In this document: piece after piece, positions 8,778 through 46,983 of the stretch | Numbering within the stretch: position 1 is the stretch's first letter | Layout of the letters: the number at the start of each line of letters is the position of its first letter | Origin: an uncultured Gammaproteobacteria bacterium | Lineage (GTDB): Bacteria > Patescibacteriota > Patescibacteriia > JACPL01 > CAZRYK01 | Direction of reading: 5' to 3' | DNA length: 64,000 bases | Assembly (NCBI GenBank): GCA_964604315.1 | Contig: CAZRYK010000002.1 | Coordinates: forward strand, 267-64,266 | The notes under the pieces: model-generated | Told to the model about the DNA's origin: nothing | Seen by the model: only the letters and a program-made list of their open reading frames with translations | Database searches by the model: none | Position numbers and translations under genes: made by a program

Positions 8778-10166
8778 TTAAGAATGGTAAATTTTTTGAC
8801 GCAACGAGACAATGTCTTGTTTAATGCGCTCGTCTTTGTGAACGTATTCTTCCATTTTGGTGCATGCATGCATGGCGGTGGTATGATCGCGTCCGCCAAA
8901 CTCGCGGCCAATGCTGGGGTAACTGCTATTCATTTCCGCGCGCATTAAATACATGGCGATTTGCCGCGGAATCACCAATTCTTTTTTGCGGCTTCCTCCG
9001 GTGATCTCCTCAATAGTGATATCAAAAAACACCGACACCACTTCAATGATCCGTTTAGGTGTAATGGCGCCGCGTTGCCCGTTTTGCACCGCGCTTCCTA
9101 AGATTTCTTTGGCCTGCTCCAGGTCAATATTGATTCTTTTTAAGTCGCGAAAGGCCGAGAGCTTGTTCAGCGCGCCCTCTAGCTCGCGGATGTTGCTTTG
9201 GATATTTTCCGCAATATAATGCAAGACATCTTCCTGGAATTCTACGCCCCATTCTTGGCACTTTTTTTCAATAATCGCCATGCGGGTTTCGAATTCCGGA
9301 ACCGAAATGTCGGCGATCATGCCCCATTGGAATCGCGACACCAAACGATCTTCCAACGCCGGAATCGCCTTGGGCGGCCGGTCAGACGTTAAAATAATTT
9401 GTTTATCGGCTTGGTGCAGGGTATTAAACGTGTGGAAAAACTCTTCTTGCGTGCCTTCTTTTCCGGAAATAAACTGAATATCGTCAATTAAGAGCACGTC
9501 CACATTACGGTAGCGTTTTTTGAAATTTTCACTTTGCCCCTCTTGCACGGATTTAATAAATTCATTGGTGAATCGTTCGCTGGTAACATAGACCACGCGC
9601 GCTTTAGGGTAGTGGCGCTGAATTTCGTGGCCCACCGCTTGCATAATATGGGTTTTCCCCAACCCCACACCACCATAAATAAAAAGCGGGTTATACACTG
9701 TGCCCGGACTTTTAACAACCGCCATACACGCGGCCCGCGCCAATTCATTGTTTTTGCCCACAATAAAGTTGTCGAACGTGTATTTGGGGTTGAGGCCACC
9801 GGAAGACATTTGTGGAGCAATAATGGCATCCATAGAGGGCGAAGGTTGAGGGTTGAGTATTTGTTGTTGAATCGTTGCGGGGTTTTGCACAGGCGTGCGT
9901 GCCGCATCCACACTTTTTTTCGTTGCCACACGGTAGGTAATCTTCAAAACCGCTAATCCTGTCACACTTTGCAATGCTCGAGTGATCTCTTTATGGTATT
10001 TTTGCTCCAACCACGACATGGTAAAGGTGTTGGGGCAGGCAATGACCACGTTCGCGTCTTCGTGAACATCAACAAACGTGTTTTTAAACCACGTTGTGAA
10101 GTTCGCTTTACTCAAAGAGAGCTCCAGTTCGCCCAATACTGCTTGCCACAGTTGATCTCTTTCCAT
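8778..10166 (-). CDS. dnaA: chromosomal replication initiator DnaA
   Basis: AAA+ Walker A GVGLGKTH plus the domain IV DNA-binding region. The start is taken at the internal Met (MERDQLW, ATG at 10166). The longer track ORF would run over the DnaA boxes. Confidence 0.9.
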   Translation of the reverse strand: MERDQLWQAVLGELELSLSKANFTTWFKNTFVDVHEDANVVIACPNTFTMSWLEQKYHKEITRALQSVTGLAVLKITYRVATKKSVDAARTPVQNPATIQQQILNPQPSPSMDAIIAPQMSSGGLNPKYTFDNFIVGKNNELARAACMAVVKSPGTVYNPLFIYGGVGLGKTHIMQAVGHEIQRHYPKARVVYVTSERFTNEFIKSVQEGQSENFKKRYRNVDVLLIDDIQFISGKEGTQEEFFHTFNTLHQADKQIILTSDRPPKAIPALEDRLVSRFQWGMIADISVPEFETRMAIIEKKCQEWGVEFQEDVLHYIAENIQSNIRELEGALNKLSAFRDLKRINIDLEQAKEILGSAVQNGQRGAITPKRIIEVVSVFFDITIEEITGGSRKKELVIPRQIAMYLMRAEMNSSYPSIGREFGGRDHTTAMHACTKMEEYVHKDERIKQDIVSLRQKIYHS

Positions 10167-10221
10167 AGTTTCCTTAGTTTTTTTACCAAAGGAATTATTG
10201 CGTGGAACTATCATAGCACAA

Positions 10222-10278
10222 TTATCCACAGGTGGAAATTTTATACCCATTGTGGATTTGTGTACATCTTGTGGATAA
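10222..10278. promoter_or_regulatory. cluster of DnaA boxes; oriC candidate upstream of dnaA
   Basis: Perfect TTATCCACA at 10222-10230, TGTGGAT at 10251-10257, and perfect TGTGGATAA (reverse complement) at 10270-10278. Confidence 0.6.
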
Positions 10279-36634: not shown

Positions 36635-36677
36635 GGGATCCGACCTCTAGAGATCCGACCCCTCTGGGGGTCGGATC
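36635..36677. repeat. REP-family element flanking the transposase 3' end: GGGATCCGACC-TCTAGA-GATCCGACCCC-TCTG-GGGGTCGGATC
   Basis: Direct repeat of GATCCGACC plus an 11-bp perfect hairpin. The RAYT stop codon and last 9 codons lie inside it. Confidence 0.7.
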
Positions 36678-37267
36678 TTGTTTTTGGCATTTTGAAAAAA
36701 GTGAAGATAATCAGGTGGCTCATCGGCCGCAGTATAACGCGACAAAATATCAAAGATTATTTTTGTCTCTATCCATGGTTGTTGCTCGTGAATGTACGCA
36801 TGAATACTTGAATAGGGGTAGGTTAATGGATCCGCGCCAATGTCACGAGGGTTGAGATGAATGTATCGTGTTAAATGAAGAAGATATTCATCTGACGGGA
36901 CAAGAATTGCCTTATATTTCTTTCCGAAGAGCGAGCCATCATGTTGATATTTTTTCTTATAATAAATCGTGTAAGCAGAAATCAAAGATTGCATAAAATG
37001 TGGGAGTGCGCGTTCTTGAGTTTGTTGTAGGGCTATATGATAGTGATTTGGCATCAGAGAAAGACTAATAATTTTAATGAGTCCAAAAAAGTTTTTTCTG
37101 TAGAGCATGGCGTCTGGCTCTGGTTGTGTTACAGCAGATTTTAGGAGATGGTAAAACATTCGGAAATCTTCTTCGTCGCGACAGATGTCATTTTTATCGT
37201 AACCGCGATTAAAAACATGGTAATAGCCATCTTTAACAAATGATCGAATATGGTATTTACTTGGCAT
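36647..37267 (-). mobile_element. IS200-like Y1 HUH transposase gene (PF01797 fold), resembling REP-associated tyrosine transposases (RAYT)
   Basis: 206 aa with YHVFNRG near the N-terminus, the HUH motif in MPNHYHIAL, and the catalytic-Tyr region LTRYIHLNP. A single gene with no tnpB, bracketed by REP hairpins. Confidence 0.7.
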
Positions 37268-37333
37268 ATAAAAATAGGGCGTGTTCGTAGAACGCCCATA
37301 AAACTATATTAGCATGAAAGAATATTTGGTACA

Positions 37334-37361
37334 AGGGATCCGACCTCCAGAGGTCGGATCC
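37334..37361. repeat. REP-family hairpin GGGATCCGACCT-CCAG-AGGTCGGATCCC flanking the transposase 5' side
   Basis: Perfect 12-bp inverted repeat, 67 nt upstream of the RAYT start. Confidence 0.7.
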
Positions 37362-37439
37362 CTCTGGGATTTGTTTTTGGCCGCGGGGCGGGGGTTGGTA
37401 GGATTTCTCCACCTTCCCCCTCCCCGCGTTGCGGGCCGT

Positions 37440-37631
37440 TCATCGGGCGGCGTACTCCTGTGCGGTCCGAAGACCGCGGAGAAACCACTCGATAAACGCA
37501 CGGCTCATGTCATCGGGTCGCATCCCGCGCAACGGGAGCGACTCGCCGATCGCCGAGATCTCCTCTTCGGAGGCATCGACGTTTAGTGACACGAGCCGAC
37601 GTTGCACGGCCAAGAAATTCGACGGGTACAT
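37440..37631 (-). CDS. small GC-rich ORF, family member B (hypothetical)
   Basis: GGAG Shine-Dalgarno 8 nt upstream. It sits in a roughly 500-bp GC-rich islet (37370-37900) and is followed by a GC hairpin CGCGGGGAGGGGG...CCCCCGCCCCGCG. Paralogous to the ORFs at 31318 and 54985. Confidence 0.35.
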   Translation of the reverse strand: MYPSNFLAVQRRLVSLNVDASEEEISAIGESLPLRGMRPDDMSRAFIEWFLRGLRTAQEYAAR

Positions 37632-37955
37632 GTCGTTTCTCCGAAACGAAAAAGGCCTCTTGCTCCCGCACGCGGGAACAACAAGCCTTTTGTGAAGCTT
37701 TAATTCTCCAGTAATGCCGACTGTCGGCTCCGGAGCGCATCCCCGCGGGGGACTTCTTTTACCACCTTACCGCTTCACTATGCGGGCAGGTTGGCGGGAC
37801 GTCACTGGGCGAAGTAGCCCTACGTCCTCTCTTAATGCTGTCTTTTCGAAGATCTAAAGACATCTTAACCAACCCCCCTTCTTTTGTCAAACATTGTTCG
37901 CCGCTGGAAGAATTGATAGAATAAAGTAGTAAATAAATATTTTGTAGCGATCGGA

Positions 37956-43155: not shown

Positions 43156-44469
43156 ATGATTCACGTCACGAAAAAAGAACTACCCCAGGGTTTGGTAGAA
43201 TTAGAAATCACCGTGCCCAAAGAGGATTTGGTGCAATTTTTGAGCAAAGCCGCACTGCGCATTTCGCAAAATATCAATATCAAAGGCTTTCGCAAAGGCC
43301 GCGCCCCCTATGCGGTTGTGAAACAACAGGTTGGCGAGGAGGGCATTTTAGAAGAAGCATCCAAAGAAATTATTTCGCAGACGTTTTATGATGCGGTGAC
43401 GCAAGAAAAGTTAGAAACGGTTGCCCAGCCGGAAATTGAAATCAAAAAGATTGCGCCCAATAACGATTTAATCTATACCGCCAAAGTTGCGCTGTTGCCG
43501 CAGGTGACGCTTGGCGACATGACCAAAATAGTTGTTGAAAAAGAAAACGCCGCCGTCACAGACAAAGAGGTTGACGACGTCATTGTGGATTTGCGCAAAA
43601 AACGCGCGACGGAAAAAGAAGTGTTGCGCCCGGCAAAAATGGGCGACCGCGTGTCTTTAGATTTTAATGTGTTTCAAGCCAATGTGCCGATTGAAGGCGG
43701 GCAGTCGAGCGACCACGCTGTGGATTTAGGCGCGGGCATGATGATTCCTGGCTTTGAAGAGCAAGTGGTGGGGCTTTCGGCCGGAGAGAACCGGGAGTTT
43801 ACCTTAAATTTTCCCGCGGAATACCATGAAAAAAGTTTGGCAGGCAAGCCGGCGGATTTTAAAATTACTGTGAAGAAAGTGTTAGAAATGGCGACGCCCG
43901 AATTAACCGATGACTTTGCCAAAAGCGTTGGGAAGTTTCAAAATACGCAAGAGTTAAAAGATCAAATCAAAAATAATCTTCAGAAAGAGCGGGAGCAAAA
44001 AACCAGAGAGCGTCAAGAAATCGACGCTATGAAGCAATTGGTTGCGCTAACAACTTTTTCTGACATTCCCGAAATGTTGATTAAATCCGAAGTTGAGGAA
44101 ATGATTCAAGAATTAAAAAGCAATGCGTCGCGCCGCGGCATGGAATTTGGTGATTACTTAAAACACTTAAAGAAAACCGAAGAAGAGCTGGCCACAGAGT
44201 TTCGTGAGCAAGCTGAGCAGCGGGTAAAATCGTCGTTGGTTGCGCGCGCCGTAACAAAACAAGAAAACTTAACCGTTGCGGATGATGAAGTCGAAAAGGA
44301 AGTTGCAAAAATATTGGACGCGTACAAAGAATACCCGGATTTGCAAAAACAATTTGACAACGATCATTACCGGCAATATACGCGCAATATGATATTGTAT
44401 CGGAAAGTTTTTACATCGCTTCTTTCGCATGCTACGGAAAAAGAAAAAACGCCCGAACCCCAAAAATAG
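43156..44469 (+). CDS. tig: trigger factor
   Basis: N-terminal ribosome-binding domain (GFRKGRAPYAVV), a central PPIase-like domain, and a C-terminal arm. Confidence 0.9.
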   Translation: MIHVTKKELPQGLVELEITVPKEDLVQFLSKAALRISQNINIKGFRKGRAPYAVVKQQVGEEGILEEASKEIISQTFYDAVTQEKLETVAQPEIEIKKIAPNNDLIYTAKVALLPQVTLGDMTKIVVEKENAAVTDKEVDDVIVDLRKKRATEKEVLRPAKMGDRVSLDFNVFQANVPIEGGQSSDHAVDLGAGMMIPGFEEQVVGLSAGENREFTLNFPAEYHEKSLAGKPADFKITVKKVLEMATPELTDDFAKSVGKFQNTQELKDQIKNNLQKEREQKTRERQEIDAMKQLVALTTFSDIPEMLIKSEVEEMIQELKSNASRRGMEFGDYLKHLKKTEEELATEFREQAEQRVKSSLVARAVTKQENLTVADDEVEKEVAKILDAYKEYPDLQKQFDNDHYRQYTRNMILYRKVFTSLLSHATEKEKTPEPQK

Positions 44470-45393: not shown

Positions 45394-45465
45394 GCGGGAG
45401 TAGCTCAGTGGTAGAGCGTAACATTGCCAATGTTAAGGTCGCGGGTTCGATCCCCGTTTCCCGCT
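45394..45465 (+). tRNA. tRNA-Gly (anticodon GCC)
   Basis: Cloverleaf with acceptor GCGGGAG/TTCCCGC, D-arm AGCTCAGTGGTAGAGC, anticodon loop TTGCCAA, and T-loop TTCGATC. Confidence 0.85.
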
Positions 45466-45508
45466 CTCGCGCCGAAATCACGACTTCAACCTGCGAAGGT
45501 CCCGATTT

Positions 45509-45535
45509 TCATCGGGGCTTTTTCGGTCTTCGTCT
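45509..45535 (+). terminator. hairpin CCCGAT-TTTC-ATCGGG followed by GCTTTTTCGG
   Basis: Rho-independent-terminator-like structure about 45 nt after tRNA-Gly. Confidence 0.45.
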
Positions 45536-45657
45536 TATGAGAATAGAGTTCCGCAACGTCGTCTGGTTTTAGTATAGATTCCATTTGAATAATGTAAGGC
45601 AATCTTACATTTAAGACATTTTTTTCATCCGGATGTCAAATTTCTATTAAAAGAGAC

Positions 45658-45686
45658 TTGATATTTATCACCCTTTTCTTTATACT
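45658..45686 (+). promoter_or_regulatory. sigma70-like promoter (TTGATA, 17-nt spacer, TATACT) upstream of the intron-containing tRNA-Leu
   Basis: Hexamers read directly. The -10 ends about 19 nt before the tRNA 5' end. Confidence 0.45.
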
Positions 45687-45704
45687 AGGCGGTAGCTTAT
45701 TTAA

Positions 45705-46016
45705 GCCGGGGTGGTGAAATTGGTATACACGAGGGACTTTAACAATATGAGCACCGGTTGCGGAAACGCTCCGTGTGAATGAGGTCAAATTCGGGGAAGC
45801 CCTGACGTCACGTCGAGGTAATCCCGAGCCAATCCCCGTACCGTACGGTGCAGGGCAGGTGTAGAGACTTAACGGCCTCCTCCTACGTGTCACAAGCATA
45901 TGGAGAAGAGAGAGTCCAGACTACGAACCACGTAAAAAGCGTGGGCGATGAAAATCGAAGTAGTATGAAAATCCCTTGGGAGCAATCCCGTGCGGGTTCG
46001 AGTCCCGCCCTCGGCA
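45705..46016 (+). tRNA. tRNA-Leu (anticodon UAA) interrupted by a 228-nt group I intron between U34 and A35
   Basis: 5' exon GCCGGGGTGGTGAAATTGGTATACACGAGGGACTT (3-bp D-stem and long D-loop typical of type II tRNAs). 3' exon AAAATCCCT + TGGGAGCAATCCCGT (long variable arm) + GCGGGTTCGAGTCCCGC + CCTCGGC + A. The exons only form a cloverleaf once 45740-45967 is removed. Confidence 0.8.
45740..45967 (+). ncRNA. group I self-splicing intron in the tRNA-Leu(UAA) anticodon loop
   Basis: Inserted at the canonical U34/A35 site used by cyanobacterial/plastid tRNA-Leu(UAA) introns. It follows an exon U, ends in G (omega-G), and contains the P7-like CAGACTACG and GGGAAGCCCTGACG core-like segments. Confidence 0.7.
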
Positions 46017-46141
46017 CATCTTAAAATAACCCAGCGACCGGAATCCAACAAAAAACTTACTAGCATCTCCATTCTCACTAAAGATATTTGTATAAATTTG
46101 TACAGAGAAAATCAATATAAATTTGTTTATCATAATATTTT

Positions 46142-46537
46142 ATGCTCCTAGTAAAAACTAAAATTGGGCAAAGCAAAATAAACGGCATTGGACTTTTCGC
46201 CGACCAATTTATTAAAAAAGGAACAATAATTTGGAAATTTCAGACAGGTTTTGACCTTCGAGTTGGTAAAGACGAACTTGGTAACCTCTCCGAGTCGGCG
46301 AAAGAACAATTTTTAAAATACGCATATTTGAATCCTCGTACCCAAAAATATATTTTGTGCTTTGATGACGCTCGTTTCTTTAATCACTCGGACGAACCAA
46401 ACTCTATAGATGTGGATTCTCCCGACGACGAAGAAGGACTTGATGTTGCAGATAGAGATATAGAAAAAGGAGAAGAGCTGACCTGCAACTATAAAGATTT
46501 TGACGCGGATTTTGATTACAAGATGAGTATTCATTGA
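46142..46537 (+). CDS. SET-domain protein (putative protein lysine methyltransferase)
   Basis: GIGLFA, RFFNHSDEPN (the NHSCxPN-type motif) and ELTCNY (the ELTxxY motif) of the SET fold. 131 aa. Confidence 0.8.
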   Translation: MLLVKTKIGQSKINGIGLFADQFIKKGTIIWKFQTGFDLRVGKDELGNLSESAKEQFLKYAYLNPRTQKYILCFDDARFFNHSDEPNSIDVDSPDDEEGLDVADRDIEKGEELTCNYKDFDADFDYKMSIH

Positions 46538-46983
46538 TTTTTTGTTATTATTAGTGGCGTGCGCTTTGCGCACCCGAATTAGTTGCCGCCAAAGAAAAAC
46601 TTGAAATTGTCAGCGGTGCGGCTCCGTCGCCTTTCCGAATTTTCGCGGGGGGGGTTCCTCGCCGCCGCAGGCGGCGAAATGCGTTCGGACTAATTCAAGA
46701 ATACTGCACAAAGATTTTCTAGAGCTCATCTCAAAAATAGCTTTCTTGGTATTTCAGATGCCCTTTGCGCCGAAACACTTGAAGGATGAGGAGGAATGGT
46801 GGGACTATTTCGACGAGTCCTGAATGTGTTGCAGGCCAAAGGGCGTGTTATTCGGCCGGAAGATTATTTTTAAGATGAGTTCTAGCAAAAGTAGCCCTTT
46901 CTTGCTACCATAAAGTTATGGTTATTTTTATTGCAGGGTTAATTGGTGTTTAGGGAGTAATTTAGCAAGATTAAAACTCGCAC

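Follow-up and report, generated by a model that had tools for sequence, protein, structure and literature searches.

The locus studied here raises the question of what splits its tRNA-Leu(UAA) gene, and whether a gene so divided still supplies the cell with a tRNA. The window, i.e., the whole 64,000-nt stretch of DNA that was analyzed, contains a 35-nt 5′ exon at 45705-45739 (GCCGGGGUGGUGAAAUUGGUAUACACGAGGGACUU, ending GGGACUU) and a 49-nt 3′ exon at 45968-46016 (AAAAUCCCUUGGGAGCAAUCCCGUGCGGGUUCGAGUCCCGCCCUCGGCA, with AAAAUCCC as its first bases), separated by 228 nt at 45740-45967 that start with UAACAAUAUGAGC and end with GUAGUAUG. These segments, and all elements of the intron described below, lie on the plus strand. 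Both exons were delimited by reading the sequence and by ARAGORN, the 5′ exon on spliced and unspliced sequence alike. The 5′ exon comprises the 5′ strand of the acceptor stem, the D arm, the 5′ strand of the anticodon stem and C32, U33 and U34, and the 3′ exon comprises A35, A36, A37 and A38, the 3′ strand of the anticodon stem, the long variable arm, the T arm and the 3′ strand of the acceptor stem, with A as the discriminator and no encoded CCA. ARAGORN identified the joined exons as a tRNA-Leu(taa) of 85 nt, a flawless cloverleaf with the anticodon loop CUUAAAA, an acceptor stem of 7 bp and a long variable arm. A sequence-only reading of this DNA had proposed a tRNA-Leu(UAA) split at exactly these coordinates that forms a cloverleaf only once the 228 nt are removed, and ARAGORN bore this out. 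The restored loop likewise upholds its placing of the insertion at the site known from cyanobacteria and plastids; the intron is inserted between U34 and A35.

Only one choice of boundaries, 45740-45967, gives U at position -1, a final intron G and a 7-nt anticodon loop, and a shift of one base in either direction loses the terminal G. The junctions described in the earlier reading, an exon U before the intron and a G at its end, correspond to U at 45739 and to omega G at 45967 (intron position 228, at the 3′ splice site); the latter is invariant in 74/74 homologues (G236 in the first row of alignment A1, described below). When the unspliced sequence was searched for introns, ARAGORN found both exons and a 228-nt intron, but placed the boundary one base earlier and applied the label Phe(GAA), because the intron begins with U. 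A Phe(GAA) gene interrupted at 33/34 was rejected, as the long variable arm is unlike tRNA-Phe and the intron would end in U. The same miscall was made by the intron search at two other loci (L028 and L046). In the window, the tRNA-Leu gene was missed by ARAGORN without intron search and by the Rfam tRNA model, and ARAGORN found no second tRNA-Leu(UAA) within the 64 kb. Default tRNA finders miss this essential tRNA-Leu(UAA), and annotations of the organism will therefore seem to lack it.

The insertion had been read as a group I intron, and a scan with the Rfam covariance model Intron_gpI (RF00028) indeed found a group I core at 45729-45935, with 50.9 bits (E 5.6e-10 for the whole 64-kb window) against a gathering score of 50. 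Such a match is well outside what chance would produce. Because this margin is thin and the match stops in P9, an independent family model was built. Two sequence patterns were used to gather homologues from public genome and metagenome data, and the exons of these homologues were verified by ARAGORN. The resulting covariance model, R1, combines the proposed structure with 34 tRNA-Leu(UAA) introns of other organisms (alignment A2, from which the window was excluded). Its single match in the 64 kb, at 45732-45975, scores 186.7 bits (E 5e-50) and covers the full model (positions 1-228 of 228). True members held out of R1 score 110-198 bits, and the window intron therefore ranks towards the top of the scores of bona fide tRNA-Leu(UAA) introns.

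Covariation was assessed by projecting the structure onto alignment A1, which holds 74 tRNA-Leu(UAA) introns. Paired cells amounted to 90.7%, vs. 31-43% after the 3′ partners were slid by 1-3 columns, and double-sided changes occurred at 50/69 pairs. The covariation score was 0.449, compared with at most 0.10 in the slid controls and at most 0.15 in shuffled alignments, 0/500 of which scored as high. The most informative helices were P2, P3, P6, P8, P9a, and P9b. P7 and the three exon-IGS pairs never varied, although the invariance of P7 in A1 is partly forced by the search patterns that collected the homologues. Further positions that are invariant or nearly so in the homologues include U-1.G, omega G, J8/7, and both GAAA loops, in addition to the P7 strands. 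In agreement with the alignment, folding the intron by itself to its MFE recovers P2, P3, P4, P5, P6, P8, and P9 (z = -2.6). An intron-encoded protein was rejected, as the sole ORF (45636-45899, minus strand, 87 aa) runs across the structured core and is without support. Together, these data demonstrate the exon/intron boundaries, the family membership and a secondary structure supported by covariation; 45740-45967 is a group I intron without an ORF.

Structural elements were assigned by hand, with the Rfam alignment and the established features of IC3 introns as guides (intron numbering plus 45739 gives window coordinates). In the window copy, every proposed pair is standard apart from a two-pair extension of P1 and one U.U in P2. 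P1 (45737-45751) joins exon C32-U33-U34 (45737-45739) to the guide G10-A11-G12 (45749-45751), with U34.G10 as the wobble at the 5′ splice site; the three pairs are C-G in 74/74, U-A in 73/74, and U.G in 74/74 of the homologues. The P1 extension is mismatched here (U.U, A.A) and is A-U, A-U in most homologues; an alternative register with U1-A8 and A2-U7 is possible. P10 consists of 1-2 pairs at best. The P2 hairpin (45755-45773, intron 16-34) carries the GAAA tetraloop L2 at 45763-45766. Its pairs changed on both sides in 7/7 cases in A1, and the loop (G32 A33 A34 A35 in the first row) is invariant or nearly so. The 5′ strand of P3, GAGGUC (45781-45786, intron 42-47), pairs with GGCCUC (45874-45879, intron 135-140), which is preceded by J7/3 (UAAC), in a P3/P7 pseudoknot; 99.5% of P3 cells in A1 are paired, with double changes at 5/6 pairs. 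J3/4 (45787-45789) reads AAA. P4 (45790-45796 with 45822-45828, intron 51-57/83-89) encloses J4/5 (AA) and P5/P5a (45799-45819, intron 60-80); this whole element (45790-45828) is seen both in A1 and in the MFE fold. In the P6/P6a/P6b hairpin (45829-45859, intron 90-120), P6a and P6b covary, and the second P6 pair in A1 occurs as C-G (36), U-A (24), and G-C (11).

The 5′ strand of P7 is GAGACU (45864-45869, intron 125-130), with A126 bulged, and its 3′ strand is AGUCC (45913-45917, intron 174-178), which together with the preceding J8/7 (AAGAGAG) spans 45906-45917. The helix is 100% paired and invariant in A1. This corrects the earlier reading, which had taken CAGACTACG (45917-45925) to be P7-like; its first C alone is in P7, and the remainder forms J7/9 and the 5′ strand of P9. 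We presume that G127 (45866) and C177 (45916) form the guanosine-binding pair, by assumed analogy with solved IC3 structures. P8 (45880-45905, intron 141-166) contains an 11-nt-receptor-like motif, CCUACG ... UAUGG, whose bases C144, U145, A161, and G163 vary little or not at all in A1. The motif is likely to be the docking site of the L2 GAAA loop, presumably in the same manner as in Azoarcus-type IC3 introns. At the 3′ end, a three-way junction (45920-45964, intron 181-225) is built from P9 (ACUAC/GUAGU), P9a (45928-45944), and P9b with its GAAA loop (45946-45957); P9a and P9b show double changes in every pair and recur in the MFE fold. P2.1, P5abc, and P7.1/7.2 are absent from the structure. 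The core P3-P4-P5-P6-P7-P8 with its P3/P7 pseudoknot is therefore present, with P3, P4, P6, and P8 documented by compensatory changes and P7 invariant. As modeled, with P2, the GAAA loops L2 and L9, and receptors in P8 and P5, the architecture is that of a compact IC3 intron. The labeled sequences most similar to the intron all carry the subgroup label IC3 in Table S5 of Nakagawa et al. (2026; PMC13011429).

Judged from its sequence, the locus is very probably a functional Patescibacteria tRNA-Leu(UAA) gene, interrupted at 34/35 by an IC3-type group I intron that is compact, has no ORF and belongs to the 'Leu.3Ug' family, one of four classical types of IC3 introns that jointly make up 65% of them (Williams, 2020). 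From this assignment we infer both catalysis and tertiary contacts. The gene would be transcribed as its own unit, and in the precursor C32-U33-U34 would pair with the intron guide GAG as P1, with the U.G wobble at the splice site. The core would fold by joining P4-P6 and P3-P8 through the P3/P7 pseudoknot, and it would be braced by docking of the L2 GAAA loop on the P8 receptor and of the L9 GAAA loop on P5. A free guanosine at G127-C177 of P7 would then attack after U34, following which the terminal G228 would occupy the guanosine pocket. Finally, the 3′-OH of U34 would attack after G228, which would ligate the two exons and re-form the 7-nt loop CUUAAAA, and the tRNA would be finished by RNase P, 3′ trimming and CCA addition. 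Since UUA accounts for 25% of the leucine codons in 17 window ORFs, tRNA-Leu(UAA) is needed, and the intron is therefore expected to splice.

Alternatively, the gene could be a relic, either as a tRNA pseudogene or as a host to an intron that needs a protein helper, with UUA being decoded by another gene copy. Land-plant trnL introns, for example, need such a helper for splicing. A mismatched P1 extension, a weak P10 and a marginal Rfam score would suit decay of this kind, but the core helices are all intact, none of the conserved junction nucleotides is missing, and the R1 score of 186.7 bits is high within the member range. Moreover, the exons fold as a flawless cloverleaf for a frequently used codon, and duplicate tRNA genes are uncommon in the reduced genomes of Patescibacteria. 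We consider a relic of either kind very improbable on these grounds, and retain the reading of a working gene with a splicing intron.

The surroundings of the gene identify its host. The best named relatives of the trigger factor (43156-44469), DnaA (8778-10250) and a SET-domain protein encoded 125 bp downstream of tRNA-Leu (46142-46537) are all Patescibacteria, and include Magasanik-, Buchanan-, Kerfeld-, and Komeilibacteria as well as 'Patescibacteria group bacterium'. A Patescibacteria-type inositol monophosphatase gene lies 420 bp upstream of tRNA-Leu, with the trigger factor gene further upstream. The tRNA-Leu gene itself is placed between a tRNA-Gly(GCC) gene (45394-45466), 238 nt upstream, and the SET gene. 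A hairpin followed by a T-run (CCCGAUUUUCAUCGGGGCUUUUU, 45501-45523) 3′ of tRNA-Gly(GCC) reads like an intrinsic terminator; the two tRNA genes are probably separate transcription units because of it. A Gly(GCC)-Cys-Leu(UAA) cluster recurs in five proteobacterial loci (L016, L020, L047, L161, and L242). The sigma70-like promoter claimed for the gene exists as a site, namely TTGATA (-35), a 17-nt spacer and TATACT (-10) at 45658-45686 on the plus strand, ending 18 nt before the mature 5′ end of the tRNA and matching the consensus at 10/12 positions. As evidence of a promoter the site is weak, as such sites are no more frequent in the window than in shuffled sequence (2 found vs. 1.6 expected).

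An exact look-up of the window trigger factor returned no record, and none of the loci fetched proved syntenic in a tblastn search with all ORFs of the window. Two relatives with 83% identity by trigger factor (L001 and L002) are on contigs that end at or before tRNA-Gly. One of these (L002:8187-9065) has an extra ORF of 162 aa, without a Pfam match, between the inositol monophosphatase gene and tRNA-Gly that is absent from the window. Contigs with SET-domain genes of 97% and 79-81% identity have other flanks and no tRNA-Leu. Thus, the same intron-bearing locus was not found in a close relative among the contigs fetched. Elsewhere in the window, an Rfam match to the SAM-I/IV riboswitch (37690-37843, minus strand; 43 bits vs. 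a threshold of 41.1) sits in a GC-rich, ORF-poor stretch of ~550 nt (37300-37850). On the same strand, the gene that follows (36647-37267, 206 aa) is, by eye, Y1/IS200-type transposase-like, an odd partner for a SAM riboswitch.

A 673-bp segment containing the SET gene (46040-46712) is ~95% identical in DNA sequence to at least six short metagenome contigs (L243-L248) from other metagenomes, at least one of them from groundwater, and their flanks differ. Three of the contigs (L243, L245, and L248) have an inverted copy of ~98 nt, corresponding to 46612-46709 of the window, upstream of the SET gene, and a direct copy lies downstream of the gene where a contig reaches that far. In the window, similarity to these contigs starts 24 nt past the 3′ end of tRNA-Leu. 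The segment 46040-46712 may be a small mobile cassette.

A second alternative is that the tRNA and its intron are foreign to this host, through a chimeric assembly or a mis-binned contig, and that the host assignment is wrong. The closest introns among the homologues retrieved are from Proteobacteria, Acidobacteriota and unassigned metagenome contigs, no further Patescibacteria locus with the intron was among the matches listed, and the abrupt shift in DNA similarity to other contigs 24 nt past the tRNA could be taken as a seam. Yet the tRNA is internal to one NCBI contig of 73 kb, with Patescibacteria-type genes 420 bp upstream and 125 bp downstream, and DnaA, 35 kb away, is also Patescibacteria-like. 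Neither is there a break in GC content beyond that expected for a structured RNA, nor a candidate donor, since none of the homologues retrieved exceeds ~70% identity to the intron in core columns. A chimeric origin of the tRNA-intron segment is accordingly unlikely, and we regard a wrong host assignment as highly improbable. That two tRNA-like halves met a spurious covariance-model match by chance has nothing but the marginal Rfam score in its favor and a practically negligible probability, as it is refuted both by the independent family model (E 5e-50, with exact boundaries) and by the strong covariation.

An intron in a Patescibacteria tRNA-Leu(UAA) gene, our preferred reading, adds a member to a family already recorded from many bacterial phyla. 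The statement in the sequence-only reading that such introns are rare outside cyanobacteria and plastids does not stand. Our genome scan found interrupted tRNA-Leu(UAA) genes in at least 65 species-representative genomes, after ~55 of the 120 loci listed were recognized as chance matches (by our own estimate, ~400 chance matches are expected for the pattern in 596 Gb). The hosts were Alpha-, Beta-, and Gammaproteobacteria, Acidobacteriota, Bdellovibrionota, a Chloroherpetonaceae MAG and a 'Prevotellaceae' MAG, and the metagenome scan added 45 further interrupted loci. Three loci from Patescibacteria/Saccharibacteria (L045, L048, and L060) were rejected because they match the 17-mer by chance and contain neither a tRNA nor an intron. 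Among the metagenome contigs, those whose introns are closest to the window intron are not Patescibacteria-like: one (L220) carries SleB-like and G5/3D-domain genes, and the proteobacterial Gly-Cys-Leu tRNA cluster is present on two others (L161 and L242). Surveys in the literature likewise put the number of tRNA introns in the hundreds to thousands. Nakagawa et al. (2026; PMC13011429) list 333 in 4,934 complete genomes of 18 phyla, call position 34/35 of tRNA-Leu well-characterised, and include IC3 Leu(UAA) introns in Acidobacteriota and elsewhere.

Several of the retrieved loci deserve mention in their own right. In L018 (Achromobacter), L063 (a betaproteobacterial MAG), and L107 (Kerstersia), the tRNA-Leu intron follows C rather than U at -1, and ARAGORN gives the anticodon caa; this pattern matches 'Leu.3Cg', flagged as needing a splicing test (Williams, 2020). 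Another group (L009, L012, L013, L016, L020 and ~25 gamma- and betaproteobacterial loci) has P9 and the 3′ junction in common with the window intron, without the G[UC]AGAGACU motif that served as our first filter on homologues. Loci L009, L012, L016, and L018 score 160-180 bits with R1. The intron at L028:4482-4748, in a MAG labeled Prevotellaceae (RUG14644), starts with UAAC and ends with GUAGUAUG like that of the window. It has the lowest R1 score (110 bits) and an aberrant P3/P4 region, with CCCUAACAAACAG in place of GUCAAAUUCGGGG, and it may be degenerate or a variant.

This kind of element is thoroughly known and catalogued in many bacterial phyla, and the finding, while correct, is an ordinary one that leaves our knowledge of how such introns work unchanged. 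Its modest novelty lies in the host phylum and in the divergence of the sequence. In 95 complete Patescibacteria genomes, Nakagawa et al. (PMC13011429) recorded 22-25 tRNA introns (in Asn, Asp, Met, Phe, Tyr, and Thr), none of them in tRNA-Leu and none assigned to subgroup IC. With its site at 34/35 in tRNA-Leu and no helix between P3′ and P8, the window intron does not fit the IA-type description of introns at 35/36 of tRNA-Asn and tRNA-Asp. By its architecture, it is a counter-example to the absence of IC tRNA introns from Patescibacteria; it adds tRNA-Leu to the interrupted tRNAs of the phylum, and it contributes a divergent sequence to a family that figures in discussions of how old group I introns are. 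It might also be an early glimpse of a lineage of IC3 tRNA-Leu(UAA) introns that is resident in Patescibacteria and was missed by complete-genome surveys, although we think this unlikely. If such a lineage were widespread and vertically inherited within a CPR class (with Kerfeld-, Magasanik-, and Buchananbacteria-like relatives), the origin of the Leu(UAA) 34/35 intron would lie before that of the cyanobacteria, deep in bacterial history. If it were instead nested in a clade of introns from the phylum of its host bacteria, it would record a transfer of genes from those bacteria to an episymbiont.

Among known systems, we take the IC3 intron of the Azoarcus pre-tRNA-Ile(CAU) as the structural archetype. 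It likewise has a GAAA loop on P2, an 11-nt-type receptor in P8, a GAAA loop on P9, a bulged A in P7 and AAA in J3/4, and likewise lacks P2.1 and P5abc. It differs in its tRNA and insertion site, and in having a simple P9 hairpin instead of the three-way junction seen here. The IA introns of Patescibacteria, at 35/36 of tRNA-Asn and tRNA-Asp and in tRNA-Met, -Phe, -Tyr, and -Thr (Nakagawa et al., 2026), come from the same phylum and are also short, ORF-less and in anticodon loops, with core motifs in common. However, they occupy other tRNAs and sites and have extra helices between P3′ and P8, of which the window intron has none; those of tRNA-Asp, -Met, and -Phe are 46-54% identical to it.

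The trnL(UAA) intron of Nostoc PCC 7120 (249 nt) and of plastids shares the tRNA, the 34/35 site, U-1.G, omega G, and the IC3 core motifs AAUCCYGAGCCAA, AGGUGYAGAGACU, and AAAGAGAGAGUCC; at this site, the Nostoc intron self-splices in vitro (PMC13011429). The resemblance to the start of the Anabaena intron that had been noted in the earlier reading is real (AAAUAAUUGAGCC in Nostoc PCC 7120, Table S4 of PMC13011429, vs. UAACAAUAUGAGC here), and is due to the shared UGAG being the internal guide sequence. In contrast, the Nostoc intron has a long P6b and another P9 and 3′ end (…GGGAGAAUG). Identity to it, the one cyanobacterial sequence compared, is 55%, vs. 60-70% to proteobacterial, acidobacterial and metagenomic copies, and neighbor-joining places the window intron on a long branch. 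By sequence, it appears to group with the non-cyanobacterial set, so that direct descent from the cyanobacterial lineage would be no more than a possibility. The non-cyanobacterial Leu(UAA) introns, such as those of the acidobacterium GCF_000022565.1 and its relatives (IC3 in Table S5 of PMC13011429), are found in the same tRNA at the same site with the internal guide sequence UGAG. They also have in common with the window intron the GAAA loop on P2, the P3-P8 core, J8/7, the P9 three-way junction with its GAAA-capped P9b, and the 3′ junction GURGUAxG|AAAAUCC, at a core identity of 60-70%. What sets the window copy apart from them is its Patescibacteria host, its own P5a and P6b extensions, U as its first base, the mismatched P1 extension and the CCUACG variant of the P8 receptor.
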